Positions 5,093-61,393 are shown, counted from the first letter of the stretch. The stretch is DNA of 64,000 nt from Candidatus Heimdallarchaeum aukensis (GCA_021513695.1 CP084166.1:224001-288000), one strand, 5' to 3'. The notes: a model not told the origin generated them from the sequence alone. Numbers and translations: made by a program.

Positions 5093-5096
5093 AAAA

Positions 5097-5867: not shown

Positions 5868-5953
5868 GAATCTTCATTAATGTCTACATTTTATTACTTA
5901 TATTTTTTTTTAATTAGATAATGTGATGAAAAATAAAGAAAATAAAAAACGCT

Positions 5954-26365: not shown

Positions 26366-26482
26366 ACTTATCACTTATATTTCTATTATTATGTATGTTC
26401 TTGGAAATTTTTAAGATTAATTATTGATTTGTTGTTAGTGTTAAAACAAAAAAGAAATAAAAAGATAGTTTGTGCTCTTACA

Positions 26483-27424
26483 ATGACCTCTCTACGCGAA
26501 ATTATCAAACCAAACAAAAAGTTCAATCTAATCAATTTAGATGAAAAAAAAACTGTAGAATTTTGGATTATTTGCTTAGTTGTTGTTATAGATTTGATTT
26601 TTTCAGTTATCATAAATTTGGTTATTTATCGCTTTGGAATATTTAATTGGATTTACGATATAACAGGTTTTGTAACGCCAACAATGCTTGCTTATACAAT
26701 ATTATATTTAGTTATTATAGGTTTATTAATAATTTATTTAGGAAAGCTAAAACCTAAAGATTTAGGATTTTCAACTAGCAAACTTTGGCAAGGTGTTTTA
26801 ATTGTGTTTGTTGGTTGGTTCATTATTCAAATTGCAGGTGTAATTTATTCACTAATTATAAGTGGGACATTAACAATTGATAGTTATATGGTTCAATCTT
26901 CTGCAAAGTTAATAATTATAAAAAACGTTGTTCAATGGTTTTTTAATGCACCATTTGAAGAATTTTTATTTAGAGAATTTTTACTTACACAACTATATTT
27001 ACAGTTCAAAAATAGATTAATTGATGATCCTAAATCGGTTAAGAAGTCTCTAACTCGTTCTTTGATAATATCACAACTAATATTCTCGTTTATGCATATT
27101 CCAAATCGTATTCTATGGGTAGTGAGTTCAGAAAGTTATACTGTAAAAGAAATAATCTGGGCAGCGGTTAATCCTCTTCAATACGGAGTTTTGTTCCTAA
27201 TAGGATTAACATTTGCCATGTTGTATCACAGGACTGATAATATTTTCATTGTTATAGGAATACATGCACTTTTTAATGAACCTAACTCTTTGTTCTTTCC
27301 TAAATGGATAGGTTCAATCTTAATTTATGTTCTTGCAATAATTATAATCCTTTTCTATCCGTTTTTCTTGAGTAAATACTCTAAAGAAAAAGAAATAATT
27401 ATTGAAAAAGATAAAATCCCTTAA
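26483..27424 (+). CDS. CPBP family intramembrane glutamic endopeptidase (CAAX protease/Abi family)
   Basis: FEEFLFREFL (EExxxR), FSFMHIPN (FxxxH) and IHALFNE (HxxxN). The ATG at 26483 is preferred over the track's TTG at 26429. Confidence 0.8.
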   Translation: MTSLREIIKPNKKFNLINLDEKKTVEFWIICLVVVIDLIFSVIINLVIYRFGIFNWIYDITGFVTPTMLAYTILYLVIIGLLIIYLGKLKPKDLGFSTSKLWQGVLIVFVGWFIIQIAGVIYSLIISGTLTIDSYMVQSSAKLIIIKNVVQWFFNAPFEEFLFREFLLTQLYLQFKNRLIDDPKSVKKSLTRSLIISQLIFSFMHIPNRILWVVSSESYTVKEIIWAAVNPLQYGVLFLIGLTFAMLYHRTDNIFIVIGIHALFNEPNSLFFPKWIGSILIYVLAIIIILFYPFFLSKYSKEKEIIIEKDKIP

Positions 27425-33759: not shown

Positions 33760-34050
33760 TACGTAAAGTTTTTCACACTCTGTCTTGCAAGAGAGAAAAC
33801 TAAAGGAAGTTTAATCTCTTGAACTCAACCAAGCCATACAATGCCATGAAGGGGTTGAGACAGACATCATACACGAATCGTGGGAATCATAAAGAAGAAA
33901 AGAACTAAAAACTCTTTTCTTCACTCCACGAGAGACAAAAAAGAAAGAATTACTCCTATAATAGAGAAGGAGTTAAGTTCTTTTTTGTCTACTGGGGCTG
34001 CAACCAATGGCTGAGCCCTCGGCAAACAGTGAAATGGGAAGAACTGAACC
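33760..34050 (-). ncRNA. candidate omega (re)RNA of the TnpB element
   Basis: It sits where omega RNAs are expected, overlapping the tnpB 3' end and the ~240-nt ORF-free tail. A perfect 10-bp hairpin spans 33894-33922 (gaagaaaaga/tcttttcttc). A 7-bp hairpin spans 33824-33859 (ctcaacc/ggttgag). The palindromes tcttgcaaga and tttacgtaaa lie near the distal end. Confidence 0.4.
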
Positions 34051-35443
34051 TTTGACCAGTGAGGTAATCAGTGATAGTTGTTCCTCGAGGACGAAAAAGA
34101 GCACCAAGGAACTTACGAGCGATATTCATTGCTCCTGTGAGGTCAGAGTGGAAAGTGTAATTGCAAGAGGGGCAATGGACTAAACCTCTAACAGGACGGA
34201 CAACTTTCCTTCCACAACGAGTACAGTGAGAGGATGTCCCTCTTTCCTCTACGGTTAATATTCGATGAGGGTCAAAACCTCTTAATATCAATGCTCGACG
34301 GAGAAGAGTAAGAACTAGAGAAAAGTTCCACTGATGAAGTTTCCTGCGAAACTTACGCGCACTGTTCCCTTTTCCTTTATCTTTTCTCACATTTTTGGGG
34401 TAACCTACGACGACGAAAAGGTCATACCTTCGAGCATAGGTCTCTATCGTCTGCACAACCTCACTTATAAATTGGTGAATATAGGACAGTTTAACGTTTC
34501 TATATCTTCTTCGGAGAAGACTAAGAAAACGATAAACTTGGTGTTTTTTACCCGACTGGTCGTTTAAAGCTGCTTTCCTCTGAAGACGGGAAAGTTTGAG
34601 TTTATATCTATGATTGATTTTATTCCATTGTTTGGTATACCAGAATTTTATTTCTTCACTTGTTAATTTCTTTTTAGGGGTTAGTAACACTCCTGCAGCA
34701 GGAATGTTTATCCCTAGATCTATTCCCAGCACAGCTGGAGGAAGAGAAGAAGAACTTTTTTTTTTAGGAGGATAAAAAGAAGGAGGAGGAAGAACTCTTA
34801 GTTGGAAATACACCCACCACTCATGTGTAGAACGTTTATATCTTAGTTCTAAACTTTTTATTCGTCCTTTCTTTAATTCCTTCTGGTGGAAAGTGCTCAT
34901 CTCTAAAGGCAACCATAACTTCTGATGATATGGGGTATTTCTTTTCCACGTATCTAACGAGTCTCTTATCCCCACCCACCAACGAGCGAGAGTGTTATTC
35001 TTCTCTTTAGGTAAATGGACGAGAACGAACCTCTTTGCATTAATTAGTTGTCTTCTTGCTCTCTTTATTGGAGGACGAGTATTATTAGGTCTATACCCTT
35101 GTTCATATAATTGTACGGCTATATCTCTACACTCTTGAAATTCATTGTGGGAACAATAAGGGAACATTTTCTTCAGATCGTGAGGGACATTCTTTCTTCT
35201 CTCTTCTTCTTTAACTTTTGAAGTAGTTAGCGTCAACTCATCTAGTTTTCCTCTATGCACTCTTATTTTCCCTTTTTTAGTTTTAGTACATATTTTTCTT
35301 CTGTTGTGGTGTATAATTCTCACATACTTTTCTATTATCCTCGTATCTCTTCCCGTTATTCTCCTTAACCTTTCCTTCTTCCTCGTCGTCAATACCTCCT
35401 TCTTTATTCTCACTTTCAAGGTTTTGACGACGTCCTTCACCAT
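33989..35443 (-). CDS. tnpB: TnpB-like RNA-guided nuclease (IS605 OrfB family)
   Basis: RuvC-I LGIDLGINIPAAG, zinc finger CTRCGRKV..CPSCNYTFH and RuvC-III HSDLTGAMNIARKF. 484 aa with a K/R-rich N-terminus. The RuvC-II position reads VVVGYPKNV rather than the expected xxxEDL. Confidence 0.85.
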   Translation of the reverse strand: MVKDVVKTLKVRIKKEVLTTRKKERLRRITGRDTRIIEKYVRIIHHNRRKICTKTKKGKIRVHRGKLDELTLTTSKVKEEERRKNVPHDLKKMFPYCSHNEFQECRDIAVQLYEQGYRPNNTRPPIKRARRQLINAKRFVLVHLPKEKNNTLARWWVGIRDSLDTWKRNTPYHQKLWLPLEMSTFHQKELKKGRIKSLELRYKRSTHEWWVYFQLRVLPPPSFYPPKKKSSSSLPPAVLGIDLGINIPAAGVLLTPKKKLTSEEIKFWYTKQWNKINHRYKLKLSRLQRKAALNDQSGKKHQVYRFLSLLRRRYRNVKLSYIHQFISEVVQTIETYARRYDLFVVVGYPKNVRKDKGKGNSARKFRRKLHQWNFSLVLTLLRRALILRGFDPHRILTVEERGTSSHCTRCGRKVVRPVRGLVHCPSCNYTFHSDLTGAMNIARKFLGALFRPRGTTITDYLTGQRFSSSHFTVCRGLSHWLQPQ

Positions 35444-46425: not shown

Positions 46426-49400
46426 ATGAAAAAGAAGTTGAAATTCATGTTAATTATGTTTTTAGTTTTGCCATTATCATTAAATCATGTCTTAGCAGAA
46501 AATGTTATTGAACTATTAAATCTTCAATCAAGATATCCTATTAATTATAAAAGTAAAGATTCAGATGTTATTTCTATAAAATCAACAATTGGAAAAGACA
46601 ATGAATTATCTATCAGAAAAAAAGAGAATAGTGTAATAAGTTCGTTAAATAATGAGTTTGTTAGTCCTTATTCTCCTAAATTGAGTTATGGATTGTACAA
46701 AACTTTTACACAGATTTCATCTGTTCCTGAATCAATAAATAAAGGAGAAAATATTAGTGTAACTTCTTCAACAAAATTTGATTTAGGAACTTTATATCCT
46801 GTAGATCAAGGAACAATTTATTGGTATGATTTGAATTGTCTAGAAGAAGATCTGGGAGTAAGTACGAGTTTTGTAGAATCAAGTAAAATAGCTATCAGTT
46901 TTAATTTAACTTCTCCCTCTAACTATATGGGTGTTTATTTTGACATCTCAAATTTAGCAGATTTAACAGGAGATGTGTTAAACGTTTATCTTACTTCAGA
47001 TCTAGAAAACTATTCTACTGATTACCTGGCGAAAAGTGAACTGTCTTTTAAGTATTACAATTCTCAAGCTGGTGTATCTGGATTTTATGCTATTTATGAT
47101 AGTCCAACAACAACTCAAGTTGATAATTCCTTATTAGCAGGTGAAACATATTTTGTGGTTTTGGAAGGAGACAGTTCTTTGAGAATCGAAACATCACTTG
47201 ATTCAGAAGAATATGATGACAATAAAGTATATGTTTTTTCAGGGGGTTCTTGGGGTTTAGAACAAGGAATAGATGCAAAAATAAGAATATTCTCTGGTCA
47301 AAAAATTACTGAAAAAACTATTTCTTCTTCTAGCAATGGAGAAACTACAATAACTTATCAGTCATCTCAATCCTCTTTTAAATATCATACTTTAGTCGCT
47401 TTCTACTATGATACTTCTGGAATGTATGATCTTTCAAGTGATTCTTCAGATTTCAAAGTAATTGACAGCACAATTCCAGAGTATATTTCATTAAATAGTC
47501 CTTCTATAGCTGAATATACAGATTACATTGAGTTGAAAGCTTATGTTGAAAACTACTATCACCAAGAACTAGAAAATCAAACTGTATATTTCTATTACTC
47601 TGAAGATAACTCTTCATGGATAGAAATTGGTTCTTCCATTTCAGATAGTACAGGAGTGGCAAAGATAAATTTCTTAATCTCAAAAGCTTCTGGATACTAC
47701 TACTTTAAAGCAGTAACACAAAATTTAGAAACTTTTAACTATACTGAAACTACCAAAGAACAAGTAATTATTGAAACTCCTCTAGTTCAAACAATTTATG
47801 GAAATCTGAGTGGATCTGATACTTTAGAGACTTTTAGTTTGAAAGTACAAGTACATGATAATGATAATACTCCAATCTCTGGAGTAATGGTTTTCTTTTA
47901 TGTAGAAGGAAAAACTTTTGTTTACGACATTACTGATGAAAACGGTTACGCAAAAACGCATAGCTATTCAGTTAATTGGGCTGTTGGATACTATAACAAC
48001 AAATATTGGGTAAATATCGACTTAGATACTAATTTGTATTCATTTCCTGATACTCAATATGGTGACATTGAAGTACAAAAATCAAATTTACAAATATACA
48101 GTTTAGATAATAATACAATCAATGTCTGGATAAACGACTCCTATTTCTCTTTTGAAGTTAAAGACCCAGAAAATGATTCTGTAGCAAATATAGAATTTGA
48201 ATCAATTTTATATGATCCTTATTTTGATGAATATGTATCTTTAGGTTACGCATTTACAAATGATACAGGATATGGTAAAATTACCCTCCCAGCTTACTTT
48301 AAAGAACCAGGAAAGTATACTTTAATAATTCGCATTTCTGACCCTAACTACAATGTTATTGAAGAAAATCTGCAACTAGAATTATATGCTTCATCAAGTA
48401 TAATAGAGTGTAATTTACCTTCTTCAATCGAATATACATACAATTCTTCTTTACTAATTGAAGGGAATGTGACTGATATAAATGGTAAACCTCTAGCTAA
48501 CGCAAACATAACTGTAAAAATTACTGACCCAAGTATATCTAGTAATTGGGTATTATACATTTATACTACAGAGACAAATTCGCAAGGATACTTTTCTATG
48601 AATTTAACTCTAGATGTTGAAGTTGATCAGGAACTGGTTATAACTATTCATGTAGAAAATTATTATGGCTCTAATGGTGAGATTTCTTATTATGCTACAT
48701 CTTCACAAGAATACAATCTTCTATGTGTTAGGCGAGATGCTGAAATTTTAAATGTTCAAGACTTTATAACCCAGAATCAAGAAACAATAATAATATCTGG
48801 TTTGCTAATTGATTCTGGAGAACCTTTAAGTGGAAAAGAGATAAGAATAATTATTCAAGAAGAGAACTACTATATTATTACAGATACAGAAGGATGTTTT
48901 TACCTTAGTTACCAAGTAAATTTTGGTACAAATGTTAACTTTACAGTTGTTTTTGGGAGTGATAATCATTATAATGTTGTCAATTTAACAAGAACAATAT
49001 TTTCTTCTCCAATAAGTTTAAACATCGAAATTGAAGATGTTATTTGCAATCCAAACACTTTAATCTATTTATCAAGCTATGTCTATTCTGATTTAGGAAC
49101 AACACCTGAAAATGTGCAAGTAGAATTTTATTGGTATGATGAACAATGGATACTTTTAGGAATAGTTTTTACAAATGAATCAGGTATAGCTCAACTGAAT
49201 ATTACAAGTCCTGATAAGGTCGGAGAATTTAGCTGGAAAGCAATAGTTGTTCAAACTGAAGATTGGTTAGAATCATCTTCTAATTTGAAATTATTCCAAA
49301 TAGGTTATCACACCTCAATAAGTATGGAAGCACCAATACAAGGACAATATGGAAATGAAATTAGAATTAATTTCACAGTTACAGATCAATTTGGACAACC

Positions 49401-52400
49401 AATAGGTGTTAACATAAACTTCTATATTGATGGACTGTTGTTAAGTGAAATATCTACAGATTCAAATGGTTTTGGAAGCTATTATTGGACAATTGATTTA
49501 AGTTCTGGTAATTATTCCTTTAAAGCTGTGGTTTTAAATCAATCTATCTATATTTCTTCTTCTTGTATCCAGGAATTTGAAATAATAAAGGCTGACGTAT
49601 ATATTCAAAGTTCAGATTTGATTATGACCTGCAATGAAACAAAAACAATGGAATTTTATGTTTATTCTATTAATGGAGAGATAACAAATCTATCGTTAAA
49701 CATATCATTGTCTAACGGTTATTCAACAGTTTTAACCAGCAATAGCTCAGGTTATGCTGTTTGGAGTATTCCTATTCTCCCATCTGGTGTATACACAGTA
49801 AACGTTACCTTTAATGGAGATGATAAATATAATACGATATCTGTTAGCTATTCACTTGTTGTTAATAAGATTGAGACAAATGTTATTCTTTTTGCAGAAG
49901 ATAGTTTTTATTCTGAAAACTATAAGATCTGTGGATATGTTGAAAATTCAGAAGGACAAGGAATTGAGGGTATTGCTGTAAATCTATTAATTAATGAAAC
50001 ATTTACTCTTTCAACAACTACATTATCTGATGGAAGTTATTTATTCCTCGTTCTTCTACTTCCTGATTATTATAATATCGAGGTACAAATAGAAGGGAAT
50101 GATTATATTAATCCAAGTTCAAGAAGCACAAGTGTTTATATCTATAAACTTTCGTCTTCTTTGAACGGAAAAATTGAGTTTATAAATGACACAATGATAA
50201 TAACGGCTAATCTAACTAGTTCATCAGAACCTGTAGAAGGACAAATAATCTATTTCTATGTGAATAATTCACTAGTAGGGACTAATCTTACTGATGTATA
50301 TGGTCAAGCAAGAGTTGAATTGTTAAATATTACTCCTAGCTTATATTCTGTAAACATTGAGTATAAAGGTAATGAAATATATCAAGAATCTTCAACAAAT
50401 ATTCAAGCAGAGAAAGATAAAGAACAGACAGAAATCAAAGTTAGTGTTGAAGAAGGTGTTTATTCTCAATCTCCAACCAATATTTTTATTTCATTAAGTT
50501 CTAATGGAGAAGCTTTATCTAACCAATATATTAAGCTGAATTTTGATAACGATAGTTATTTAGCTTTAACCAATTCTTCAGGTGTAGCAGTTATTGCTTT
50601 AGATATAAACTACCTGCCTGGAAATTATAACGGAGAGATAGTCTATGAAGGAAGTGAAATATACTCATCAAATGCTGTTTCAGTGAATATAACTATTTAC
50701 AAGTCAAACTGTGTTTTCAGTTCTCTTGAAATTCAATACTTAGAAACTCTGACAATCCTAAATGGAAAAATAGAAGGTAAATATCCATTAGAAAATGAAA
50801 GCATATTCATTGAAATAAATGGGAGTAGTTACAATGTTCTTCAAACTGATGAAAATGGAGTTTTTTCTTCAGTTTTAATTTTAAATCCTGGTGAATATAC
50901 ATTAACTGCTATATTCTTAGGAAATGATTGCTATTTACCTGTAAATCAGTCAATTTACTTTTCTATCTCTAAAATAGCTTCAGGGTTGGAAATATATGAC
51001 TTTTCTAAAACTCTGGAATATGGAAAAGAAGAACTTGTAGAGTTCAAACTTTATTCATACAACAATGAATCAGGAATTGAAGGACAAATCTCTGTTATGA
51101 TTAATGGTTCATTAATAACTATTGTAGAAACAAGTAGCGATGGATTAGGTTCATTTCTACTTCCTAATGATTTATCAGTAGGGACTTATATTCTCCAGAT
51201 TTCTTTTGCTGGAGATGATCTATATTACTCTACTTCAGAATCAATAACAATCAAAGTGAAATATAAACTTGAAATTTCAATTACTGAATCAGACTTGAAG
51301 AACTATGGAATAGAAGCTTCTATCAGCGGTATTCTAAATATTCCTCTAGAAGGAATAAGTCTAACGCTAAATATTACTAACCTAAATTATTCAAATGTCG
51401 TAAAAACCAACAGCGATGGAGAATTCATTTTTGTTATTCCAAGCAATATTCCATCAGGAAATATGACAATTGTATTGTTTATTGAAAAAACTGAAACTAT
51501 TTTAGATACAAACTATTCGTTTGAGACAACAAGGGGTTATGGAGAATATTCTGTTTTATTTACTAACCTTGAATTTGATATAAATAGCACAGAGAGTATC
51601 ACTGGTAAAATATCTTATAATGGTGATTACAGTTCTTCAGGAAAGATATATATCAAAATAAACGATACTATTGTTCTTACACAGGAATTCAACGAACTAG
51701 GTGAATTTAACATAGCTCATTCAATATTTGATCTACTTCCTGGAGATTACAACATTAAATTCTATTTTGAGTTTGATAACGAGAATTTTAGAAGCCAAGA
51801 ATTGACAATTAAAATAGAAATATTAAAACTTGAATTAAATCTGGAAGTCACTACTAGCAGTTCTGAAATTCAAGTCTATGATGTTTTATCATTAAATATA
51901 AGCGCAAATTATCCATTAGATAAGGATAGAATAAAACTATTAGTTAACAATACTGAATATTCGAATAATGAGTTTGAAATTATAGAATATGAGAATTATC
52001 TTACCGCAAACATAGTAATTGAATTAGCAGGTAATATAAACATAACTGTGATATTTGAAGAAAATGACTTCTTTTATAGAAGCGAAAAAAGTTTAATTAT
52101 TCAAGTTCTTAAAAGAGATGTTGGCTTTGAATATAATCGAGATACATTTTATTACAATTCCAGCATTCCATTGATAATAGAACTTATTTCATTTAAGAAT
52201 GAGACAGATATTGAATTTACAGTTCTTCTGGGAGAAAGAGCCGAAACAGGAGTAAAGACAATAAGTTTCATACTCACTAATATTTTCATTGGAGACTATC
52301 AAGTGTATATGTTGTTTGAAGGAAATTCTTATTACAACTCTTTTAACTCTTCATTTGTTATCCATATTATTCCTCAACCAACAAAGATAGTTTTCAAAGA

Positions 52401-52791
52401 AAATAAATCAGATTATCTTCTAACATTACTTTTACTAGATTCAGAGAATAGAAGTATTTCTAATGCAGAAACAACGATATTCTTCTTAGATACTACTCAT
52501 CTGGTTTTAGAAAATCGTACTCTCTTCACTGATGCAAATGGTTATTTGTATTTAGATGTCAGTACATTTCCTGAAAAAACAACAATGATAAGGATTGTTT
52601 TTGATGGAGATGTGGTATATGAGGATACGATGATCGATATAGAAGTTGAAGATATTGTCAAAACTTATACCCAGAATGTAAAAATCCCGAAAATGAATAT
52701 GATACATATGCTAATCTCTATTCCTGTAAGCATTATAGGATTAATAGTATATTCAAAAAAAGACATTTTCAAGAATCTTAAAAAACATTAG
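46426..52791 (+). CDS. giant repetitive cell-surface protein (signal peptide, ~20 beta-sandwich modules, C-terminal TM anchor)
   Basis: N-terminal signal MKKKLKFMLIMFLVLPLSLNHVLA. At least 15 recurrences of the T[DN]xxG[YFVI] module motif (TDENGYAKT, TNDTGYGKI, TNSQGYFSM, TDSNGFGSY, TDANGYLYL and others). Dozens of NxS/T sequons. C-terminal anchor MIHMLISIPVSIIGLIVYSKK. Confidence 0.8.
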   Translation: MKKKLKFMLIMFLVLPLSLNHVLAENVIELLNLQSRYPINYKSKDSDVISIKSTIGKDNELSIRKKENSVISSLNNEFVSPYSPKLSYGLYKTFTQISSVPESINKGENISVTSSTKFDLGTLYPVDQGTIYWYDLNCLEEDLGVSTSFVESSKIAISFNLTSPSNYMGVYFDISNLADLTGDVLNVYLTSDLENYSTDYLAKSELSFKYYNSQAGVSGFYAIYDSPTTTQVDNSLLAGETYFVVLEGDSSLRIETSLDSEEYDDNKVYVFSGGSWGLEQGIDAKIRIFSGQKITEKTISSSSNGETTITYQSSQSSFKYHTLVAFYYDTSGMYDLSSDSSDFKVIDSTIPEYISLNSPSIAEYTDYIELKAYVENYYHQELENQTVYFYYSEDNSSWIEIGSSISDSTGVAKINFLISKASGYYYFKAVTQNLETFNYTETTKEQVIIETPLVQTIYGNLSGSDTLETFSLKVQVHDNDNTPISGVMVFFYVEGKTFVYDITDENGYAKTHSYSVNWAVGYYNNKYWVNIDLDTNLYSFPDTQYGDIEVQKSNLQIYSLDNNTINVWINDSYFSFEVKDPENDSVANIEFESILYDPYFDEYVSLGYAFTNDTGYGKITLPAYFKEPGKYTLIIRISDPNYNVIEENLQLELYASSSIIECNLPSSIEYTYNSSLLIEGNVTDINGKPLANANITVKITDPSISSNWVLYIYTTETNSQGYFSMNLTLDVEVDQELVITIHVENYYGSNGEISYYATSSQEYNLLCVRRDAEILNVQDFITQNQETIIISGLLIDSGEPLSGKEIRIIIQEENYYIITDTEGCFYLSYQVNFGTNVNFTVVFGSDNHYNVVNLTRTIFSSPISLNIEIEDVICNPNTLIYLSSYVYSDLGTTPENVQVEFYWYDEQWILLGIVFTNESGIAQLNITSPDKVGEFSWKAIVVQTEDWLESSSNLKLFQIGYHTSISMEAPIQGQYGNEIRINFTVTDQFGQPIGVNINFYIDGLLLSEISTDSNGFGSYYWTIDLSSGNYSFKAVVLNQSIYISSSCIQEFEIIKADVYIQSSDLIMTCNETKTMEFYVYSINGEITNLSLNISLSNGYSTVLTSNSSGYAVWSIPILPSGVYTVNVTFNGDDKYNTISVSYSLVVNKIETNVILFAEDSFYSENYKICGYVENSEGQGIEGIAVNLLINETFTLSTTTLSDGSYLFLVLLLPDYYNIEVQIEGNDYINPSSRSTSVYIYKLSSSLNGKIEFINDTMIITANLTSSSEPVEGQIIYFYVNNSLVGTNLTDVYGQARVELLNITPSLYSVNIEYKGNEIYQESSTNIQAEKDKEQTEIKVSVEEGVYSQSPTNIFISLSSNGEALSNQYIKLNFDNDSYLALTNSSGVAVIALDINYLPGNYNGEIVYEGSEIYSSNAVSVNITIYKSNCVFSSLEIQYLETLTILNGKIEGKYPLENESIFIEINGSSYNVLQTDENGVFSSVLILNPGEYTLTAIFLGNDCYLPVNQSIYFSISKIASGLEIYDFSKTLEYGKEELVEFKLYSYNNESGIEGQISVMINGSLITIVETSSDGLGSFLLPNDLSVGTYILQISFAGDDLYYSTSESITIKVKYKLEISITESDLKNYGIEASISGILNIPLEGISLTLNITNLNYSNVVKTNSDGEFIFVIPSNIPSGNMTIVLFIEKTETILDTNYSFETTRGYGEYSVLFTNLEFDINSTESITGKISYNGDYSSSGKIYIKINDTIVLTQEFNELGEFNIAHSIFDLLPGDYNIKFYFEFDNENFRSQELTIKIEILKLELNLEVTTSSSEIQVYDVLSLNISANYPLDKDRIKLLVNNTEYSNNEFEIIEYENYLTANIVIELAGNINITVIFEENDFFYRSEKSLIIQVLKRDVGFEYNRDTFYYNSSIPLIIELISFKNETDIEFTVLLGERAETGVKTISFILTNIFIGDYQVYMLFEGNSYYNSFNSSFVIHIIPQPTKIVFKENKSDYLLTLLLLDSENRSISNAETTIFFLDTTHLVLENRTLFTDANGYLYLDVSTFPEKTTMIRIVFDGDVVYEDTMIDIEVEDIVKTYTQNVKIPKMNMIHMLISIPVSIIGLIVYSKKDIFKNLKKH

Positions 52792-52848: not shown

Positions 52849-54264
52849 ATGAACAACAAAGAGAAAAATCAAAAACTATCCTTTTTAAAAAATCAATATA
52901 GTAGACTACTCGATAAATTATCAAAGTCAATTGTAGTAAAAATCAGAGAACAAGGAAAACTCCCTTTCTTTTTAGTAGTTTTAATTTGGATAGTTTTCTG
53001 GGGAAGCTCCTTTTACTTTATTACAGTCTTTATGCCTGTTAATTTGTTGTGGTTAAGAGTATTCTTACCTGTATTTATTTCTCTTATTGTTGTTAATGCT
53101 TCAACAGAATTAGGAAAAAAGGTAGTGGGTTATCATAATGAAAAAGAAGAGAAAGTTGAGAAAGAAAGTTCTTCTTCTCTCTTAAGTGAAGAAAAGGACA
53201 TTTCTACAAAAGAAGGTTATTCTTTGAAATCAACTTTCATTCTTCGTGATAAGAAAGGGAAAAAAATTTTTCTTATTAATAAAGGCAAAATTATTCCTGT
53301 TTTTTTGGTTAGCATATTGAGTACAGGAAACAAAGAAAAAGGATACACATTTTCTTCTTTGTTGAATTATCCTTTAAGAAATGAAATGAAAGAAATAGAA
53401 TTTTCAGTTTTAGACACAGATAAAGGAGAATATTTGCTTTTTCTAGGAAAAGAATACAAAACTAAAAACAAAAATTATACAGAATTATTAAAGGAAAATG
53501 AACAGTTTTTCTCAAAAATAGAGATTATAGTTGCTGAATTAAAGAGAGACAATAATTTAGAATTAGAAGCTGTTGAAGATTCAATACTTAATGAGCTTTT
53601 TCCTCTTTATTCTGAAGTATTATGTTGTAAAAATGAAGACACTAACAAAAAGGAACAAAAAATAGAAGAAAAAAATCATCTACAGTTAAAGAGTGAAAAT
53701 AATAATCTAAATAATGCAAATAATGGAAAAGAATATAATCAAAATGGTGAGAGCAGTAATAGATTCAGACCTTTTTCAGTTAAAACTGAACTTACACCAT
53801 ACCAATTAACGAAGGTTGCAGAAAAAAAAGAACTACTATTATCTGAACTCACTTATTCTTTTGATAATTTCATTGATATGTCTAAAGTATTTTATAAAAA
53901 AGCTCTTGAACATCAATTGAACGCAAAGTTTCCTATCTCCGAGGATAATTTTCTTAAACTTATACAACTCTTTGTAGAAAAGAATAAGTATGAATTCTTT
54001 TATCCAAGTTTCTTTAAACTAGAGAAGTATGAATCTTTCAAAGTCTTTGAAACTCCTAGTTCAGAAGAGATAGAAGAGTTTTCTGAAGAACTAGTAAAAG
54101 AATGTATGTTTACTAATTTAGATACTGAAGTAAAGAAAGAGTTGCATTCCTTCCTTACTCAAAAAATCAAAAATAGGAAGCATAGGCAAGAAGTAAAACC
54201 TGTAGGAATTAAAGTATCTTCTACAATTCCTAGGCCATCAGTAAAATCTTTATCAGAATCTTGA
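52849..54264 (+). CDS. membrane-anchored hypothetical protein
   Basis: 471 aa. Two to three N-terminal TM segments, then a soluble region with a low-complexity N/K/E linker. Confidence 0.5.
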   Translation: MNNKEKNQKLSFLKNQYSRLLDKLSKSIVVKIREQGKLPFFLVVLIWIVFWGSSFYFITVFMPVNLLWLRVFLPVFISLIVVNASTELGKKVVGYHNEKEEKVEKESSSSLLSEEKDISTKEGYSLKSTFILRDKKGKKIFLINKGKIIPVFLVSILSTGNKEKGYTFSSLLNYPLRNEMKEIEFSVLDTDKGEYLLFLGKEYKTKNKNYTELLKENEQFFSKIEIIVAELKRDNNLELEAVEDSILNELFPLYSEVLCCKNEDTNKKEQKIEEKNHLQLKSENNNLNNANNGKEYNQNGESSNRFRPFSVKTELTPYQLTKVAEKKELLLSELTYSFDNFIDMSKVFYKKALEHQLNAKFPISEDNFLKLIQLFVEKNKYEFFYPSFFKLEKYESFKVFETPSSEEIEEFSEELVKECMFTNLDTEVKKELHSFLTQKIKNRKHRQEVKPVGIKVSSTIPRPSVKSLSES

Positions 54265-54273
54265 GGAGATTGA

Positions 54274-54909
54274 ATGATTGAAATAGTTTTTTTGAATTTC
54301 TTGAATCTCTTTGTTAAAATATGGCTATCAGCTCTTTTAATTAATATTCTACTTTCCACTCTCTTAAAACCAATTTATAAACATCTGTTGGCAATAGGCT
54401 TGGTTTTCAATTTACCAATTAAGCGACTATTTTATTGGATCTATAGAGTACCCATTGAGAATATAGATTGGGAAAACGGTCTAATTAGAACAAAGAAAGT
54501 GAATAATATGGATTGTCTAGCAACTACAGTTGTGATCATGCCTGTATTTATTTTAAGCTACTTATCTAGTTGGTTATTCTATTTTGCAGGTAAAATCTAT
54601 CCCTATGGTTACAAGTTCTTTGGAATTGTTCTTTATATTGTCGCTTCGTTAAGTCTAGCTTTCAGTATTCCTAACTTTGAGGAATTGAAATTGTTTAATA
54701 ACATTAATCTTCATTCCTCTTTGGTCTATTTACTAAAATGGGTATTTGTAGTTATAGTTGTCTTTTCAATAGTTGAGTTTACTTCTATCTCTCTTGATGT
54801 ATTAACTACAGTGATATTAGTTCTTTTAGCTACTCCATTTTATAGTTATAAAGAAGATGAAGAAAATGTAGAGAATATTAAGAAAATTATTGGTGATCCA
54901 TTTGCATAA
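54274..54909 (+). CDS. polytopic membrane protein (paralog of 45683..46423)
   Basis: 211 aa. LAFSIPNFEELKLF pairs with FAFFSIPDVQDLMLPF in 45683..46423. Confidence 0.5.
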   Translation: MIEIVFLNFLNLFVKIWLSALLINILLSTLLKPIYKHLLAIGLVFNLPIKRLFYWIYRVPIENIDWENGLIRTKKVNNMDCLATTVVIMPVFILSYLSSWLFYFAGKIYPYGYKFFGIVLYIVASLSLAFSIPNFEELKLFNNINLHSSLVYLLKWVFVVIVVFSIVEFTSISLDVLTTVILVLLATPFYSYKEDEENVENIKKIIGDPFA

Positions 54910-55585: not shown

Positions 55586-56056
55586 ATGTATTCAGAGCAA
55601 GAAGTGATAAGAAAAATAACAGAAACTTGGAAATTTGAAAATAAAGTATGCGTGAAAGAACTACAAATTCCTTTAGTAGGCAAAAATATCAATTATCCTT
55701 TTTTAGAAAATAGAAAAAGCATTCGTATAGATCTTGCTTGCTATGATATTGTATCTGATAAAATTATTTTTGTTGAAGCAGAAAATGGTCTGTGGCTTCC
55801 TCATCCCCAAATTTATAGACCTTTTTGTGATATGTTATATGTTGCTACTCCCTATGATGATAGTTACTATAGAGAAAAGCAACTTGAGTGGGCAAAAAAT
55901 GAAGGAATAGGAGTAATTGAAGTTCTTTATGATGGTTACATTATAGAAACATTAAAACCTGTAGTTTTTCCTGATTCGATGGATATCTCTTTAAGAGAAG
56001 AAGTTCTAGCACATTTTGTTAAGAAACTCAAAAAAAACGAAAAAATAGCTGATTGA
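55586..56056 (+). CDS. MmcB-like / PD-(D/E)xK nuclease-fold protein, tentative
   Basis: IRIDLACYD..KIIFVEAENG is a D..ExK-like core with K replaced by E. It is followed by YRPFCDMLYVATPYD and EGIGVIEV, resembling the MmcB-family Y..CD.fYfa.P..G pattern. Confidence 0.4.
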   Translation: MYSEQEVIRKITETWKFENKVCVKELQIPLVGKNINYPFLENRKSIRIDLACYDIVSDKIIFVEAENGLWLPHPQIYRPFCDMLYVATPYDDSYYREKQLEWAKNEGIGVIEVLYDGYIIETLKPVVFPDSMDISLREEVLAHFVKKLKKNEKIAD

Positions 56057-56113: not shown

Positions 56114-59100
56114 ATGAAAGGAACTGCTATTGCCACATCAAAATTTCAAGGTAAGAATCAAGCTATTTATTCAATAAAAAAAGATGATAAAATTACTTTA
56201 TACTGTGCGTTCATTATTAGACCAAAAAAGAAAGAAGTTGAGAAAAAAGGAGATTATGAAAAAAAAACTACTATTTTTGTAACAGATACTAAAAGTCTTT
56301 TTTTGCCTTTGAATATTGATTCAAGTCTAAAAATTATGCTTCACCGCTTTATTTTACCAGCTAAACTCAGAAAAATAACAAAAGAAAAAAATAAAGGAAT
56401 AGAAATCTCTAGAAAAAAAGAAGAGAGTGAAGAAATCAATGTATTTTTAACTTATTATATCTTTAAAATCTCAAAAACTTATGATCTTACCGTAAATTTA
56501 CTTTCAATGAATACATTGTTAGAAGATTTTGCAGAAACTGTTAGATCTAATTTAAAAGAGTTGTTCTTATCTTTAGGAGCAGTAGGAAGAATAACAGGAG
56601 AATTATTAGAAAAAATCGTTTGTTTGAATGTTACAGATAAATCGTCTATTATCAATAACAACTCTAAAGAATTTTTAACAGAGCTTGCAAAAGAGTTTGT
56701 TGTAATAGAAAAAAGTACAGAAATCCAATCAATTTTCCTCCCTGGTCCTTCCGTAGATTTAAGAACTTCGAGTGTATTTTTTACTCCTTCAAGAATAGAA
56801 TCTGCTTTTCCTTTAGGGAAGACGGAAGAAGGTTTTCTTGTAGGCTTTCCTCCCTCTTTCTCTTACCCCATACTTTTGTGTGGAGATAAGAAAATAAGAA
56901 AAATTTTACTCTCCAAAATTTTAGAAAATTCATCTGCTAAATTTATTGTTTTAGGAGAGATAAATGGAAAAATAAGAAAAAAGAATGTAAAGTTAAGTTT
57001 AGGAGAGAATTTTACATTTAATATCTTATCTCCTATGTTTATGCGAAAAGTACTGTCAGAGAGAGATTATTGGCGTTATCTGAGTGATTTTCTACTCATA
57101 GTTAAAGAAGTAACCGAAGTTAGAAATGAAAATCTTTTACAAATTCCTGAAATAATTAAATTTTATATCCAAGAATATGAACAAAGTGAAGATAACCTCT
57201 TTACTCCTTTTGATTATAGTTCTGTAACTATTGACGATATTTATACAATGCTTACATCTGAACCTGGAGGATTAATAATTTCAGATTATCAATTAGCTGC
57301 TTTACGTTCTGTTTTTACTGATATTAGCGATAATTCAGTTAGCACGGTAACTAATATTAATGGAAAACATGGAATTGAAGCATTAATTGACCAGAACCAT
57401 ATAATTGACTTCAGTAAACATTCAATAAAAGTTAGAAAAATATTCGTTTATTCGTTATTGCTTCAACTTTATTTATATTTTCAAACAGATTTAATTTCTA
57501 AACCAGTAATAGTAGTAATCGACAATGCAGAATTATTCTTTTCAACTGAAGTTGAAAGAACTTTTATTTCAAAACTACTCACACTATTTGAATCTCTACC
57601 TGTAAATATTATCCTTTCAACAAGTTTTCCTTCTCATCTAGCTCTTACTGCTTTTGATTTAACAAATAATAGAATTATAGCTAATCTTCGCTCTGCTAAG
57701 TGTGCAAAATTAATTGCTGATTCACATAATTTATTAAAAGAACAGAAAGAAATGCTTCTTCGCCTTCCACAAAATTCCTTTCTTATCCTCCGGGAAGATT
57801 TTTTTGAGAAACCCTTTCTTGCTTACTTACAAAGAGAAGATCTAAATTTGTTTTCTAATTCCAGACGATTCAATCTTGAAAAATTGGATTCATTAGTAGA
57901 TATTGGAAACACTAGTGCAATTTTAGAAGATGAAAATAGAGTAATTGAACCTATTTTTGATGAAGAAGATCTTCTTCCTATTATGATTGATATTTTAAGA
58001 AAACTTGATTCTAAAGCTCAAAGGGGAATCAACTCTGAATCATTGGTTAATCTCTTTCCTGACTATCCTGCAATTGAAGTTAAGAATGCTGTAAAATTAT
58101 TAGAGTTAAGAGGATTGATTTTTCGTGAGACAGTTGATAAAGAAGGAAGAAAAGGTGAATTTTGGACAAAAATAAGTCCTTTAGGCAAGAAAATGTTATC
58201 TAGATTCGAGATTCAATCCATAGCAAAGAATGATAAAATTGACAAAGTTGAACGAAAAGAAGAGGAGATAACTATTTTAAAAAATGAACAAAGTCATAAT
58301 GAAAAAATATCTAACAAAAAGCAAAACAATGGAAAAAAAGATTCTTTAGAACAATCAGAAGTTATTAACCATTTAGAGAAGGTACAAAACAATTTAAAAA
58401 ATAGTAGGAATCCTGTTGATGCTTTTTTGGATTCAATAATGAAAGTTGAAAAAAAAGCCATACAAATATTCTCAAGAAAAGGTAAAAAGATAGGTAAAAT
58501 TTCAGATTTTTACATTTTGTTACATGACTTTATCCAAAAGGCAAAAGCTGTAGATTTCAATATTCAATCAGAGCTAAAAGAGTTTGAGCAGTACTTAAAC
58601 TCACTTTATGATGTTTTAGAAGATAGTGAATCCCTTGAACAAATGTCAGATGAAATATTAGAAAGAGTAATGAGAAAAGGATTAAATCTCTTAGATCAGA
58701 TACATGTTAAATGTTCTTTTGATAAGATCGAAAGAAACTCCAGTAATCTTCCAGAACTTCTTGAAAAAGAATTAAATTCTGATAAATGGGAAAACATTGA
58801 AACTAAATTTGATGATGAAGTAGTGAGTGATATTAAGCATAATATAAAGAATGACATACAATCAATGTTCTTAACTGATTCTGAAAAACAAGTTTTTCAG
58901 GTACTTAATCATGCATTAGAAGCTCCTAAAGACAGTTTTATTGATTATGCTAGAAAAGCTATAGCAAGACTAATGAAAATAAAAATGCAGTTTTACCCTA
59001 ATCTCGATGATAAAGAGTTTATTATTATTTTTGTAAGATTCTTTGAAAAAAATCAATTACCAATACCGTTTAATGAATCGATTCTGATGGTTGATGAACT

Positions 59101-59269
59101 AGCTTTTCTTAGCACAATTTCCAAACAAAAGAAAAAGGAAATAATCGCGAAAATAATAGAGGAAAATAACTCATTTGTGTTTGATTTAGATGATAAAAGT
59201 AAAGATAGTCTTGTTATTCAGTTAAAGGAAATTGTCTCAAAAAGTCTAAGAAAGTTAAAAGAGGAATAA
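56114..59269 (+). CDS. large HerA/FtsK-superfamily-like protein with degenerate Walker motifs plus a winged-helix-like segment
   Basis: PLGKTEEGFLVGF..YPILLCGDKKIRKILLSKIL occupies the P-loop position. PVIVVIDNAELFF occupies the Walker B position. It continues with NIILSTSFPS. Later comes VKNAVKLLELRGLIFRETVDKEGRKGEFWTKISPLGKKML. 1051 aa. Confidence 0.45.
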   Translation: MKGTAIATSKFQGKNQAIYSIKKDDKITLYCAFIIRPKKKEVEKKGDYEKKTTIFVTDTKSLFLPLNIDSSLKIMLHRFILPAKLRKITKEKNKGIEISRKKEESEEINVFLTYYIFKISKTYDLTVNLLSMNTLLEDFAETVRSNLKELFLSLGAVGRITGELLEKIVCLNVTDKSSIINNNSKEFLTELAKEFVVIEKSTEIQSIFLPGPSVDLRTSSVFFTPSRIESAFPLGKTEEGFLVGFPPSFSYPILLCGDKKIRKILLSKILENSSAKFIVLGEINGKIRKKNVKLSLGENFTFNILSPMFMRKVLSERDYWRYLSDFLLIVKEVTEVRNENLLQIPEIIKFYIQEYEQSEDNLFTPFDYSSVTIDDIYTMLTSEPGGLIISDYQLAALRSVFTDISDNSVSTVTNINGKHGIEALIDQNHIIDFSKHSIKVRKIFVYSLLLQLYLYFQTDLISKPVIVVIDNAELFFSTEVERTFISKLLTLFESLPVNIILSTSFPSHLALTAFDLTNNRIIANLRSAKCAKLIADSHNLLKEQKEMLLRLPQNSFLILREDFFEKPFLAYLQREDLNLFSNSRRFNLEKLDSLVDIGNTSAILEDENRVIEPIFDEEDLLPIMIDILRKLDSKAQRGINSESLVNLFPDYPAIEVKNAVKLLELRGLIFRETVDKEGRKGEFWTKISPLGKKMLSRFEIQSIAKNDKIDKVERKEEEITILKNEQSHNEKISNKKQNNGKKDSLEQSEVINHLEKVQNNLKNSRNPVDAFLDSIMKVEKKAIQIFSRKGKKIGKISDFYILLHDFIQKAKAVDFNIQSELKEFEQYLNSLYDVLEDSESLEQMSDEILERVMRKGLNLLDQIHVKCSFDKIERNSSNLPELLEKELNSDKWENIETKFDDEVVSDIKHNIKNDIQSMFLTDSEKQVFQVLNHALEAPKDSFIDYARKAIARLMKIKMQFYPNLDDKEFIIIFVRFFEKNQLPIPFNESILMVDELAFLSTISKQKKKEIIAKIIEENNSFVFDLDDKSKDSLVIQLKEIVSKSLRKLKEE

Positions 59270-59281
59270 AAAGGGAGAAGG

Positions 59282-61393
59282 ATGAATGAAATAGAGTTAA
59301 GTTCTGAAAAACTAGAGGATTTTCAACAGAGGTGTATGGAAACTTTTTTGAAAAAAGAAAATTGCCTTATTTCTTCTCCTTCTTCTACAGGAAAAACATT
59401 TCTAGTTAAAGAATATATTAAAAATTACATTATAGAAAACTACTCAACTATTCTACGATCTCCTAAAAAAATGAAAATAGTGCTACTGTTTCCTTATAAG
59501 GCGATTGCTATACAAGAATTTAACTCACTAGTCGATTTTGCAGAAAAAAAGATGATCAAGATATTCTTATCTGTTGGAGGAGTAAAGTTAAACAAAGAAA
59601 CAGTAATGGAAGCAAATATTATTGTTGGAACATTTGAAAAGTTTTACTTCATTTTGAATCTATTCCCTGAAATTCAAAAGAACTTGAAAATATTGGTAAT
59701 AGATGAATTTCACTTTTTAGGTTATAATAGGGGAAAAGTGATAGAAAGTATATTATTAAAAGTTAAGGAAAACAAAAATACACAGATTATTCTTTTATCC
59801 TCATCAATCGGGAATCCTGAGGAAATAGCAAGTTGGTTAGGCTTTAAACTTTTGCAATATAATAAACGCTTAGTACCGTTGGAATTGAATATAAAAAAAA
59901 TTGAAAAATCTCTTATACAAGAAATATTTTCAATCAGCAAAGCTAACTTACCTGCTATTATATTTCAAAACTCAAGATCTAAAGTAGAAAAATTAGCTCT
60001 AGAATTAGCAAAAAAAAGAAAAGATGTATTGATAAAGAATTTCGAAGAGTTTTTCGTAAATTCTCCTAACCTTATTTCAATAATGGAAGAAGTTTATTTC
60101 CCTGATAAACTAAAAGAAGCAATTTCAAAGAGAGTGGCTTATCATCATGCAGGTTTAAGTGATATAGTTAGAGTATTTGTAGAACAATTATTTCTTTCTG
60201 GAGAGATTGATTACTTGATTTCTACTTCCACTCTGTCAGCTGGAATAAATCTTCCAGCTAAAATGTCAATTTTTGTTATAGAAAGAAAACAATCTGAAGT
60301 TGATAATAATTTAATTTTTCAAATTCTGGGGAGAGCAGGAAGATTTGAGTTTCAAGATAAAGGAATAGGAATTCTATTAATAAGACCAGCTTATTTGAAA
60401 GAATATAGCGACAAACTTTTTGACCAAAGAGGAAAACCTATTTACAGTAGTTTAAAAAGCCAATTTTTTGACTATGATTTTTTGATCAAATATTTTCTGG
60501 TAGAAATCGCATTTTCTAAGGAACCTGTTTCAGTAAGGATAGAAGATTTATTAAAAAAAATCGAGAATTCACTATGGTTTTATAGTAACAAAGAAATATT
60601 CTTAGTATTTAACTCTAAAGATGTTCATTATGCACTTTTTTCTCAAGCCTACTCAAGTTTGGATTATGAAGAGATAGTTGATTATTATGAGAAATTAGAT
60701 GAAGCTTTTGGTATAAAGCCTTCTAATTTACAACTCGTTTCTAAGCAAGAAAAAGGCAAAGGTAACTTCTCTTTTATAATTTTAGAGAATGAAAAAAAAT
60801 ACAAAGTAATTATGAATTTAGAAAGAAGACAATGTTCTTGTCAGTCAAAGTACAGCAATTATCTTTGTAGACATCAGCGTTTTTTGATTAAGATGTATCC
60901 TTTCATGAAAGAATATTGGTTAAATAAATATGGAATAATCGATTGGCTGATCGATAATGGTTTTTTAGTTAGAAGCAAAGGAATGAAGGTTAATCCTACT
61001 TTATTGGGAAAAATTTCTGCAAAATTTTTTATTCACCCTTATTCTTTTCTTCATTTTCTTCATTTATTAATTATCTATCCTAACATTAACTTTTCCTCTT
61101 TTTTTACTAAAGTTGTTCTATTCGATGAACAAATAAAGAGAGATATTAAGTCAAATGAACTAACAAATATACAAGCTTTGCAAATATTTCAACTATTAGT
61201 AAAACAAGAACCATTAACAATATGCTCAAAATACAATATTTCAGACAGTCTATTAGAAAATTGGCAAGAAATATATACCAAGTACAAGAGTTTATTTTTT
61301 GAATTAAAGAAACTTATGGGAAAAAATCTAGCAAAAGGGAACTTTACAAATAATTTCCTCACGAAAAATGAAGTTGAAGAAACAATTCGTTAA
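59282..61393 (+). CDS. Ski2/Hel308-like DExH helicase with SWIM-type zinc finger
   Basis: Motif I SSPSSTGKTFLV, II VIDEFHFLG, III LSSSIGN, then HHAGL, STSTLSAGINLPA and VI QILGRAGR. The SWIM finger reads RRQCSCQSKYSNYLCRHQ (CxC..CxH). Confidence 0.8.
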   Translation: MNEIELSSEKLEDFQQRCMETFLKKENCLISSPSSTGKTFLVKEYIKNYIIENYSTILRSPKKMKIVLLFPYKAIAIQEFNSLVDFAEKKMIKIFLSVGGVKLNKETVMEANIIVGTFEKFYFILNLFPEIQKNLKILVIDEFHFLGYNRGKVIESILLKVKENKNTQIILLSSSIGNPEEIASWLGFKLLQYNKRLVPLELNIKKIEKSLIQEIFSISKANLPAIIFQNSRSKVEKLALELAKKRKDVLIKNFEEFFVNSPNLISIMEEVYFPDKLKEAISKRVAYHHAGLSDIVRVFVEQLFLSGEIDYLISTSTLSAGINLPAKMSIFVIERKQSEVDNNLIFQILGRAGRFEFQDKGIGILLIRPAYLKEYSDKLFDQRGKPIYSSLKSQFFDYDFLIKYFLVEIAFSKEPVSVRIEDLLKKIENSLWFYSNKEIFLVFNSKDVHYALFSQAYSSLDYEEIVDYYEKLDEAFGIKPSNLQLVSKQEKGKGNFSFIILENEKKYKVIMNLERRQCSCQSKYSNYLCRHQRFLIKMYPFMKEYWLNKYGIIDWLIDNGFLVRSKGMKVNPTLLGKISAKFFIHPYSFLHFLHLLIIYPNINFSSFFTKVVLFDEQIKRDIKSNELTNIQALQIFQLLVKQEPLTICSKYNISDSLLENWQEIYTKYKSLFFELKKLMGKNLAKGNFTNNFLTKNEVEETIR

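Follow-up and report, generated by a model that had tools for sequence, protein, structure and literature searches.

A 64,000-nucleotide stretch of the genome of Candidatus Heimdallarchaeum aukensis (CP084166.1:224001-288000; hereafter the window, whose positions serve as coordinates) encodes a protein of 1051 amino acids (aa) that retains the core of a HerA/VirB4-type ATPase but in which the motifs for ATP binding and hydrolysis are degenerate. We refer to it as pseudo-HerA. HerA-type ATPases normally power nuclease or effector complexes that act in repair, defense, and DNA transfer. Because pseudo-HerA has lost the ATP-binding loop and is encoded next to a nuclease gene and usually a helicase gene, it is most likely a passive platform on which a DNA-processing complex particular to this lineage would form, and we lean toward the view that this complex joins a helicase and a nuclease in DNA repair, with pseudo-HerA as a scaffold devoid of ATPase activity. 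Its open reading frame (ORF) corresponds exactly to the interval 56114..59269 on the plus strand of a window with a G+C content of ~28-30%, and a protein identical to it has been deposited from a Candidatus Heimdallarchaeaceae metagenome-assembled genome (MAG).

To place the protein, a range of homology searches was carried out. Searches of Pfam, NCBIfam, PHROGs, and PDB sequences with pseudo-HerA itself gave nothing usable, and the sole match of the family profile among PDB sequences was a non-significant one to the HerA-like protein YjgR (E 1.5). Word-indexed searches recovered seven relatives, all from Heimdallarchaeaceae MAGs, and a profile search of the same kind added none. A profile built from the seven relatives (A1) was then run exhaustively on 1.84 billion representative proteins. 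The 34 matches comprised further family members, two proteins of ~1100 aa (P0021 and P0027), and a tail of proteins of 500-700 aa that match only profile positions ~380-620. Canonical DUF87/HerA_C proteins were reached by exhaustive profile searching at whole-library E values of 6e-7 to 4e-4. Pfam DUF87, the HerA central domain, was present in 12 of the 19 sequences examined and HerA_C in nine, along with weaker matches to TrwB, AAA_10, FtsK, and TraG, and nearly all full-length proteins among these canonical relatives have both GxxGxGK[ST] and hhhhDEAH. When the pseudo-HerA family alignment (A3) was compared with an alignment of twelve canonical HerA-like proteins (A4) using hhalign, the two matched with 99.6% probability (E 1.1e-24) over 344 columns, corresponding to aa 222-583 of pseudo-HerA. 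In the reverse direction, a hidden Markov model (HMM) of canonical HerA-like proteins matched aa 278-577, beginning just past the P-loop site, while Foldseek matched the predicted structure to VirB4/TrwK (E 3e-10), many HerA hexamers, TrwB, and FtsK. Both the motif order specific to the HerA/VirB4/TraG family and the RecA-like alpha/beta core are thus present in pseudo-HerA. On the strength of the hhalign, reverse HMM, and Foldseek matches, the core almost certainly belongs to the HerA/VirB4/TraG/DptH branch, with DUF87/HerA proteins nearest by sequence; the likeness of the aligned sequences is far beyond chance. An initial annotation, made from the nucleotide sequence without database searches, had proposed a HerA/DUF87-type motif order at aa ~225-560 and had named a core that is not HerA-like at all as the outcome that would overturn it. 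The profile-profile alignment bears out the former and speaks against the latter.

The same alignment shows what has been lost. At the P-loop position, the family reads YPILLCGDKK-----IRKI opposite hHxxIxGxTGSGKTNxxxxI, so that a five-residue deletion takes out the GK[ST]. The string quoted for this position by the initial annotation as lacking GxxxxGK[ST], YPILLCGDKKIRKILLSKIL, lies at aa 251-270 and does contain a GD turn and the five-residue deletion in place of the loop. In the structural model, the strand formed by residues 253-256 runs nearly straight into the helix formed by residues 259-271 and is joined to it by G257-D258 alone. This two-residue link leaves no loop to hold phosphates. 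The Walker A motif GxxxxGK[ST] is absent from all 32 unique family members extracted, and the more general pattern [AG]xxxxGK[ST] was not found anywhere in pseudo-HerA or its full-length relatives. At the P-loop site, Heimdallarchaeaceae members have GD[KN]K, and sister clades have GGLQK or GEEK. The Walker B site is affected as well. The change of DEAH to DNAE noted earlier in the string PVIVVIDNAELFF (aa 464-476) was confirmed: opposite viDEAH, the window protein has IDNAE, its closest relative INNAE, most other relatives IDDAE, and two sister clades LENAE and IPQME, such that the position of the catalytic Glu is occupied by N, D, or Q across the family. The site of the ExRKxG arginine finger reads SLPVN or ENSxFK with no conserved R, and that of the TQxPS motif reads ST(S/P)(F/Y)PS with no conserved Q. 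A fourth subfamily, found later, is also degenerate (GEPK and LVLENLDD). Every element of nucleotide hydrolysis that can be aligned in the core is therefore almost certainly degenerate, and the aligned sequences place this degeneration in the ancestor of the whole Asgard family with its four subfamilies rather than in the window gene. With the Walker A motif, the Walker B Glu, the arginine finger, and the Gln all gone, sequence and predicted structure support the earlier proposal of an ATPase-dead HerA-like scaffold, and we infer that pseudo-HerA has lost both ATP binding and ATP hydrolysis.

The initial annotation had also raised the possibility of a functional P-loop elsewhere in the protein, with the segment AFPLGKT as the example. 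None was found. Its lysine, K236, is V, A, or L in relatives that are 34% identical, and in the profile-profile alignment the segment falls opposite the 'iG' motif, ahead of P-loop strand 1. Decay of the gene was likewise considered and ruled out given the intact ORF of 1051 codons, the many invariant positions, and the occurrence of the family in 23 species genomes. The degenerate core and the winged helix that follows it are in fact the best conserved parts of the protein, with mean top-residue frequencies of 72% and 79%, respectively, and 54 invariant columns among 357 in the core and 21 in the winged helix. The core is under strong purifying selection, and this pattern of conservation indicates a retained pseudo-enzyme, not a decaying gene.

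The remaining parts of pseudo-HerA, listed together with the other features of the locus in Table 1, also agree with what the initial annotation had suggested, namely a winged-helix-like segment followed by about 350 aa of charged helices. The winged helix is the most conserved segment of the protein. The C-terminal region that follows it has 35% charged residues, is poorly modeled, and is partly kept in the Kariarchaeaceae subfamily, where P0027 matches profile positions 444-934. The N-terminal domain is conserved across the family and is possibly the counterpart of the HerA N-terminal barrel, although it gave no separate structural match. The predicted full-length AlphaFold model has a mean predicted local distance difference test score (pLDDT) of 52, with values of 58-84 in the core. 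No transmembrane (TM) segment is present.

Table 1. Features of the pseudo-HerA locus, in window coordinates.
Feature	Position	Strand	Basis or remark
g2121, giant surface protein	46426..52791	+	signal peptide, repeats, C-terminal anchor; conserved cluster member
g471, two N-terminal TM helices and large soluble domain	52849..54264	+	conserved cluster member, no family match
g211, polytopic membrane protein with conserved C-terminal DPFG tail	54274..54909	+	~5 TM segments
RadB/KaiC-like small RecA-fold ATPase, 211 aa	54890..55525	+	TIGR02237 RadB E 2.5e-14, below cutoff
p156, PD-(D/E)xK-fold nuclease-like partner, invariant E25, D49, E64, E66	55586..56056	+	fold search
pseudo-HerA, 1051 aa	56114..59269	+	HerA/VirB4-type core without ATPase motifs
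N-terminal beta-rich domain and helices, aa 1-224	56114..56785	+	strands aa 19-57, 73-86, 107-124, pLDDT 60-74
Degenerate RecA-like ATPase core, aa 225-583	56786..57862	+	hhalign range 222-583
Walker A remnant SYPILLCGDKKIR, aa 250-262, GD turn in place of P-loop	56861..56899	+	hhalign, model
Walker B remnant IVVIDNAELFF, aa 466-476	57509..57541	+	opposite viDEAHxxF in hhalign
Winged helix domain, aa 620-697	57971..58204	+	most conserved segment of the protein
Helical, charged C-terminal region, aa 698-1051	58205..59269	+	low-pLDDT helices throughout
Ski2/Hel308-like superfamily 2 (SF2) helicase, 703 aa	59282..61393	+	DEAD and Helicase_C Pfam domains
SWIM-type zinc finger in C-terminal half of helicase, aa 507-536	60800..60889	+	Pfam SWIM E 0.007, below cutoff
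g614, N-terminal TM helix	61432..63276	+	conserved cluster member

The most informative neighbor is one that the initial annotation overlooked, a protein of 156 aa encoded directly upstream of pseudo-HerA (p156). Pfam and PDB sequence profile searches with p156 gave no match, and it was identified by fold search only, using a structure predicted from database homologues. The model contains the alpha-beta-beta-beta-alpha-beta core fold of the PD-(D/E)xK superfamily and matches many restriction enzymes as well as Hjc and HamA. Four acidic residues located on strands 1, 2, and 3 (E25, D49, E64, and E66) are invariant in all lineages. Strand 2 carries D49 and strand 3 ends with E64-A-E66, which puts a Glu at the canonical Lys position. 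From these residues and the modeled fold, p156 is predicted to be a nuclease of the PD-(D/E)xK type.

Downstream of pseudo-HerA lies the gene for an SF2 helicase. Its closest PDB sequences are ASCC3 (1.7e-49), Brr2 (4e-45), and Hjm (2.6e-42), with HamB far behind (1.6e-9). The NCBIfam Hel308/Hjm models match it with an E value of 1e-47, but at 131-161 bits against cutoffs of 887-1216 and only over the N-terminal ~465 aa. The protein is therefore not equivalent to full-length Hel308; instead of the C-terminal winged helix, ratchet, and HhH, its C-terminal half carries a SWIM finger. Motifs I (PSSxGKT), II (DEFH), and VI (QxxGRAGR) are conserved in 22 orthologues, as are the CxC...CxH residues of the SWIM finger, and by its motifs the helicase is intact. 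The initial annotation had contrasted the degenerate HerA-like protein with intact neighboring ATPases, RadB-like and Ski2-like. This holds for the Ski2-like helicase, but less so for the RadB-like protein. The latter keeps its Walker A and B motifs, but the second Gly of GPPxxGKT is replaced by A, C, or S in seven of 22 orthologues. It also has Pfam matches to KaiC, AAA_25, and other P-loop families and a PDB match to RadB (E 0.0017). Among the orthologues in L005-L026, and counted from the first possible start codon, the RadB-like ORFs of most other lineages extend ~80-100 aa further upstream; the window's clade lacks this extra stretch, in which a helix and the motif P(Y/F)(P/A)S(V/I)RYP are conserved. 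The start of the RadB-like gene overlaps the end of the gene for the membrane protein g211, and the ATPase seems to be tied to the membrane genes rather than to pseudo-HerA.

The distribution of the family was determined using one genome per GTDB species. Members were found in 23 species genomes, all Heimdallarchaeota MAGs, including the complete Ca. Heimdallarchaeum endolithica chromosome and AB_125. Wherever enough flanking DNA was available, the same eight genes were kept together at 25-45% identity: g614, g471, g211, the RadB-like ATPase, p156, pseudo-HerA, the helicase, and g2121. The arrangement differs in one respect: relative to all other Heimdallarchaeota loci (L007-L026), the window/H. 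endolithica clade has g2121 and g614 with their places at the cluster ends exchanged, g614 thus being at the other end in most other species; both genes are retained. The genes for p156, pseudo-HerA, and the helicase overlap or are separated by at most 4 nt in most lineages, the corresponding gaps in the window's clade being 57 and 13 nt. In most loci, the RadB-like gene lies 50-80 nt upstream.

Four further contexts were reached through p156 homologues of greater divergence. In Kariarchaeaceae (L029), a g211-like protein, an XPD-like helicase, and a p156 counterpart of 151 aa (p151) are encoded opposite a Hef-like helicase, a 557-aa gene, and a pseudo-HerA of 1207 aa. L031 and L034/L035, from MAGs labeled Hodarchaeota or Wukongarchaeota, have a p156 counterpart (p18x), a pseudo-HerA of 1142 aa, a Hel308-like helicase, a Hef-type helicase-ERCC4-HhH protein, and an XPD-like gene, with an Arf-like GTPase and a Big_1 surface protein upstream. 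L032, an unlabeled Asgard contig, encodes p158, a pseudo-HerA of 1060 aa, and Hef, followed by a Rad51/RadB-like ATPase, a g211-like protein, proteins of 208 and 402 aa, and a giant Big_1 protein, the order matching that of the window. Hef-type helicase-ERCC4 genes accordingly lie beside the pair in three loci outside Heimdallarchaeaceae, and XPD-like genes in two. Based on the recurrence across Heimdallarchaeota and these four contexts, the invariant core of the module is the nuclease plus pseudo-HerA. Around it, two themes recur, one of DNA repair helicases and nucleases, the other a membrane and surface module that includes the RadB-like ATPase. All occurrences found of the nuclease/pseudo-HerA module are in Heimdallarchaeia-related Asgard archaea.

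Several further observations were made on these loci. At 2150-2758 (-) in L031 and 4349-4957 (-) in L034, an Arf/Ras-like small GTPase and a protein of ~500 aa are encoded divergently from the nuclease/pseudo-HerA pair, with the Big_1 surface protein beyond them. The proteins of L031 and L034/L035 are near-identical (phmmer E 0 to 1e-98), yet their p156 clusters carry the label Hodarchaeota in one source and Wukongarchaeota in another, so the source taxon labels are inconsistent. The family member in L032, at 3995-7177 (-), was rejected by the HMMER composition-bias filter; it was detected at E 4.5e-19 with the filter off and at 92.5% by hhalign. Low-G+C, lysine-rich members of the family are probably under-counted by standard searches. 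Finally, a BsaWI-like restriction endonuclease and an N6/N4 methyltransferase are encoded directly beyond g614 in L003 (10896-13007 (-)), a contig 82% identical to the window, and the pair is absent from the equivalent place of the other loci examined.

The membrane and surface genes of the cluster proved difficult to classify. Orthologues of g211 occur in Heimdallarchaeaceae, Kariarchaeaceae, and L032, and in Heimdallarchaeaceae its extreme C-terminus is a conserved acidic DPFG motif (alignment A8) that might serve to dock a partner in the cytoplasm. No Pfam or PDB family match was obtained for g211 apart from a weak profile match to NIPA2 in the PDB that is probably driven by TM composition. 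An orthologue of g2121 has faint Big_1/Big_3_5 matches, and g614 is probably surface-exposed. No recurring Pfam signal was detected for g471, g211, g614, g246, g443, and their counterparts in other lineages; an isolated PrgU-like Pfam match (E 4.9e-4) appeared in one of 24 membrane-side proteins (alignment A7).

Farther upstream, ~4 kb before g2121, the window contains a RadA/Rad51 recombinase gene (41578-42669 (+), Pfam Rad51 E 1.9e-51). A TnpB/Cas12f-like protein (33989-35443 (-), Cas12f1-like TNB domain, E 1.6e-9) and an HTH-domain-containing integrase of the rve family (37854-38792 (+)) suggest that insertion-sequence elements are located upstream of the cluster. A mobile-element origin of pseudo-HerA was considered and dropped: the window has no tRNA, pseudo-HerA has no phage match, and nothing points toward such an origin. 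Unrelated to pseudo-HerA are a homologue of the Rce1-like CAAX prenyl protease (26429-27424 (+)) and a GH38 alpha-mannosidase (29292-32099 (-)), members of families usually discussed in a eukaryotic context.

Taken together, we interpret pseudo-HerA as an inert descendant of a HerA/VirB4-type P-loop ATPase that would have been kept as a structural platform. It would bind p156, encoded upstream, and the SWIM-containing helicase, encoded downstream, while the winged helix and the C-terminal helical region may hold DNA, further partners, or both. ATP-driven unwinding or translocation, the task of HerA in HerA-NurA, would be supplied by the SF2 helicase, not by a ring, and the complex would act on DNA that is broken or branched (stalled forks, recombination intermediates, or ends, for example) in Heimdallarchaeia-related Asgard archaea. 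Both the physical complex and its role in repair are inferred from gene linkage: we counted the tight and persistent association of the p156, pseudo-HerA, and helicase genes in favor of a partnership, and the Hel308-like, Hef, XPD, and RadB/Rad51-like neighbors in favor of a repair theme. Several points weigh against this interpretation. Assembly of the ring and activation of partners in canonical HerA require nucleotide binding at the subunit interfaces. The active site of p156 would be D...ExE versus the canonical D...ExK, a variant of the motif that occurs in BamHI. The full-length model is poor, notably for the N- and C-terminal folds. The p156/pseudo-HerA pair is not co-directional in Kariarchaeaceae and L032, and in the former it is separated by the Hef-like helicase and the 557-aa gene. 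Moreover, a purely cytoplasmic repair complex does not explain the persistent linkage to polytopic membrane and giant surface proteins.

This linkage is the starting point for a different explanation, in which the whole cluster is one machine, anchored in the envelope, that mediates cell contact and the exchange or import of DNA and is functionally analogous to Ced/Ted or to a Gram-positive-type type IV secretion system. Pseudo-HerA would sit at the membrane as its hub on the cytoplasmic side, with DNA entering or leaving the cell being processed by the helicase and the nuclease. The eight genes do stay together at 25-45% identity despite the swap of the surface genes between the cluster ends. 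Kariarchaeaceae and L032 also have g211-like membrane proteins, giant surface proteins of the Big_1 type are seen again in L032 and L034, and VirB4 is among the best structural matches of pseudo-HerA. In Ced/Ted, moreover, a VirB4/HerA-like ATPase works with a channel of 6-7 TM segments, and Ted loci carry a HerA helicase and Rad50 (PMC9905601). On the other hand, VirB4/CedB must hydrolyze ATP, whereas pseudo-HerA has neither a TM segment nor an ATPase site, and g211 has no detectable similarity to VirB6/CedA or any other family. No pilin turned up, though no search aimed at pilins was made. In addition, L031 has the trio with Hef and XPD and no g211 homologue within the DNA available. The membrane genes are coupled through overlapping starts to the RadB-like gene, not to the trio, so that two adjacent but separate modules are equally possible. 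For these reasons an envelope-anchored machine is, in our estimation, a doubtful explanation, and it is rather improbable that the cluster is one unrecognized Asgard apparatus, with adhesin-like giant surface proteins, that links contact at the cell surface with recombinational repair and with the uptake or exchange of DNA. If it were, the archaeal lineages closest to eukaryotes would have their own functional equivalent of the crenarchaeal Ced/Ted systems, with a dead VirB4/HerA relic as its hub and its motor outsourced to an SF2 helicase.

The cluster might also encode an anti-virus or anti-plasmid helicase-nuclease defense system, similar to Hachiman or the HerA-effector systems, in which the dead HerA-like protein would be a sensor or scaffold. 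The helicase matches HamB profiles (E 1e-34), aa 458-558 of pseudo-HerA match the PADLOC mad8 profile (E 9e-9), and the BsaWI-like restriction-modification pair lies just past the cluster in the related contig L003. However, HHpred alignments to PDB homologues were the source of the mad profiles (10.1101/2023.03.30.534895), so the mad8 match reflects generic HerA-type similarity, and the helicase is far closer to ASCC3/Brr2/Hjm/Hel308 (E 1e-42 to 1e-49) than to HamB in the PDB. p156 matches no PADLOC profile, and there was no match to phage genomes. Known defense systems are usually patchy and found in variable islands, whereas this family occupies one conserved neighborhood in 23 species genomes with vertical-looking divergence, and its recurrent neighbors are the repair genes Hef, XPD, and RadB. 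Because its distribution is clade-wide and syntenic and its helicase and neighbors are repair-like, we consider a defense role unlikely and rate it below the repair scaffold. A final alternative is that pseudo-HerA is still a nucleoside triphosphatase or nucleotide sensor working through a non-canonical site, for example the invariant GDKKxR segment with D470 and E473. These residues sit where nucleotide would bind; G257, D258, K259, and R262 are invariant in one alignment of relatives, R262 and E473 are kept throughout the Heimdallarchaeaceae subfamily, and most relatives keep one acidic Walker B residue (IDDAE). Yet the phosphate-binding loop has been deleted, leaving a five-residue gap and a two-residue turn, and the arginine finger and sensor glutamine are absent. 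The closest relative has NN at the Walker B site and one sister clade has PQ and lacks GDKK, leaving no common catalytic set, and we regard such residual activity as very improbable.

The scaffold interpretation has partial precedents among known systems. HerA-NurA, the archaeal DNA end-resection complex, is the precedent for HerA working with a nuclease (PMC3326311). In that complex, HerA is an active hexameric translocase of ~500 aa; pseudo-HerA is twice as long, lacks the P-loop, catalytic Glu, and arginine finger, and adds a winged helix and a 350-aa helical tail that HerA does not have. NurA, usually accompanied by Mre11/Rad50, is RNase H-like, whereas the partner here has a PD-(D/E)xK fold and an SF2 helicase is present in the operon, and no Mre11, Rad50, or NurA was seen in the annotated flanks of the pseudo-HerA loci. 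HerA hexamers also scaffold and activate effectors, as in DUF4297-HerA (PMC11291478) and Sir2-HerA/Nezha (PMC11514289). These defense systems are two-gene and patchy with active ATPases; pseudo-HerA, predicted to be ATPase-dead, is clade-wide, syntenic, and linked to helicase and repair genes. VirB4, CedB, and TedB are active and bound to VirB3/VirB6-type partners (PMC9905601), while here the site is gone and no similarity to VirB6, VirB2, or CedA was detected. A further precedent is PINA, a hexameric ATPase that works with Hjm/Hel308 and the PD-(D/E)xK resolvase Hjc in Sulfolobales (PMC6061704). The three-part logic is alike: forks and Holliday junctions are handled jointly by a ring-type P-loop protein, a helicase of the Hel308 family, and a PD-(D/E)xK nuclease. 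PINA is, however, active and of another family (PIN plus KH), and its gene is not in an operon with those of Hjm and Hjc, making this an analogy rather than homology. The C-terminal domain of DptH/DndH (PDB 7es4) is 12% identical to pseudo-HerA, but the other components of phosphorothioate restriction, DptF/DptG and the Dnd genes, are absent here, and there was no match to a PADLOC Dpt/Dnd profile. The cluster does not correspond to Hachiman (HamA DUF1837 plus HamB) either, since p156 has no PADLOC match and the helicase is only weakly HamB-like in the PDB (1.6e-9). Membership in MADS, in which mad8 occurs with methylase, kinase, and specificity-subunit genes, was also rejected: the mad8 match is partial, and no other mad profile was matched among the seven cluster proteins scanned. 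The degenerate FtsK-like domains of EccC/EssC usually still bind nucleotide, whereas the only P-loop-fold domain of pseudo-HerA has lost the loop. Those domains are found beside an active ATPase domain in type VII secretion (PMC9436818). Literature searches on inactivated HerA in Asgard archaea returned no description of a pseudo-HerA family, and the combination of a HerA-class scaffold, predicted to be catalytically dead, with a nuclease and a coupled helicase appears not to have been described previously.

With its fold kept, its ATP-binding loop deleted, and an SF2 helicase in the operon, pseudo-HerA offers a natural way of testing which contributions of the HerA scaffold are separate from ATP hydrolysis. 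Heimdallarchaeia-related Asgard archaea are generally placed closest to eukaryotes among prokaryotes, and the genes linked to pseudo-HerA include several with eukaryotic fork-repair or recombination relatives: the Hel308/ASCC3-like helicase and its SWIM finger, Hef (XPF/FANCM-related), XPD, and the Rad51-paralogue-like ATPase. The module would thus be an uncharacterized, lineage-wide component of genome maintenance in these organisms, and its still unexplained linkage to membrane and giant surface proteins is potentially the more interesting dimension.

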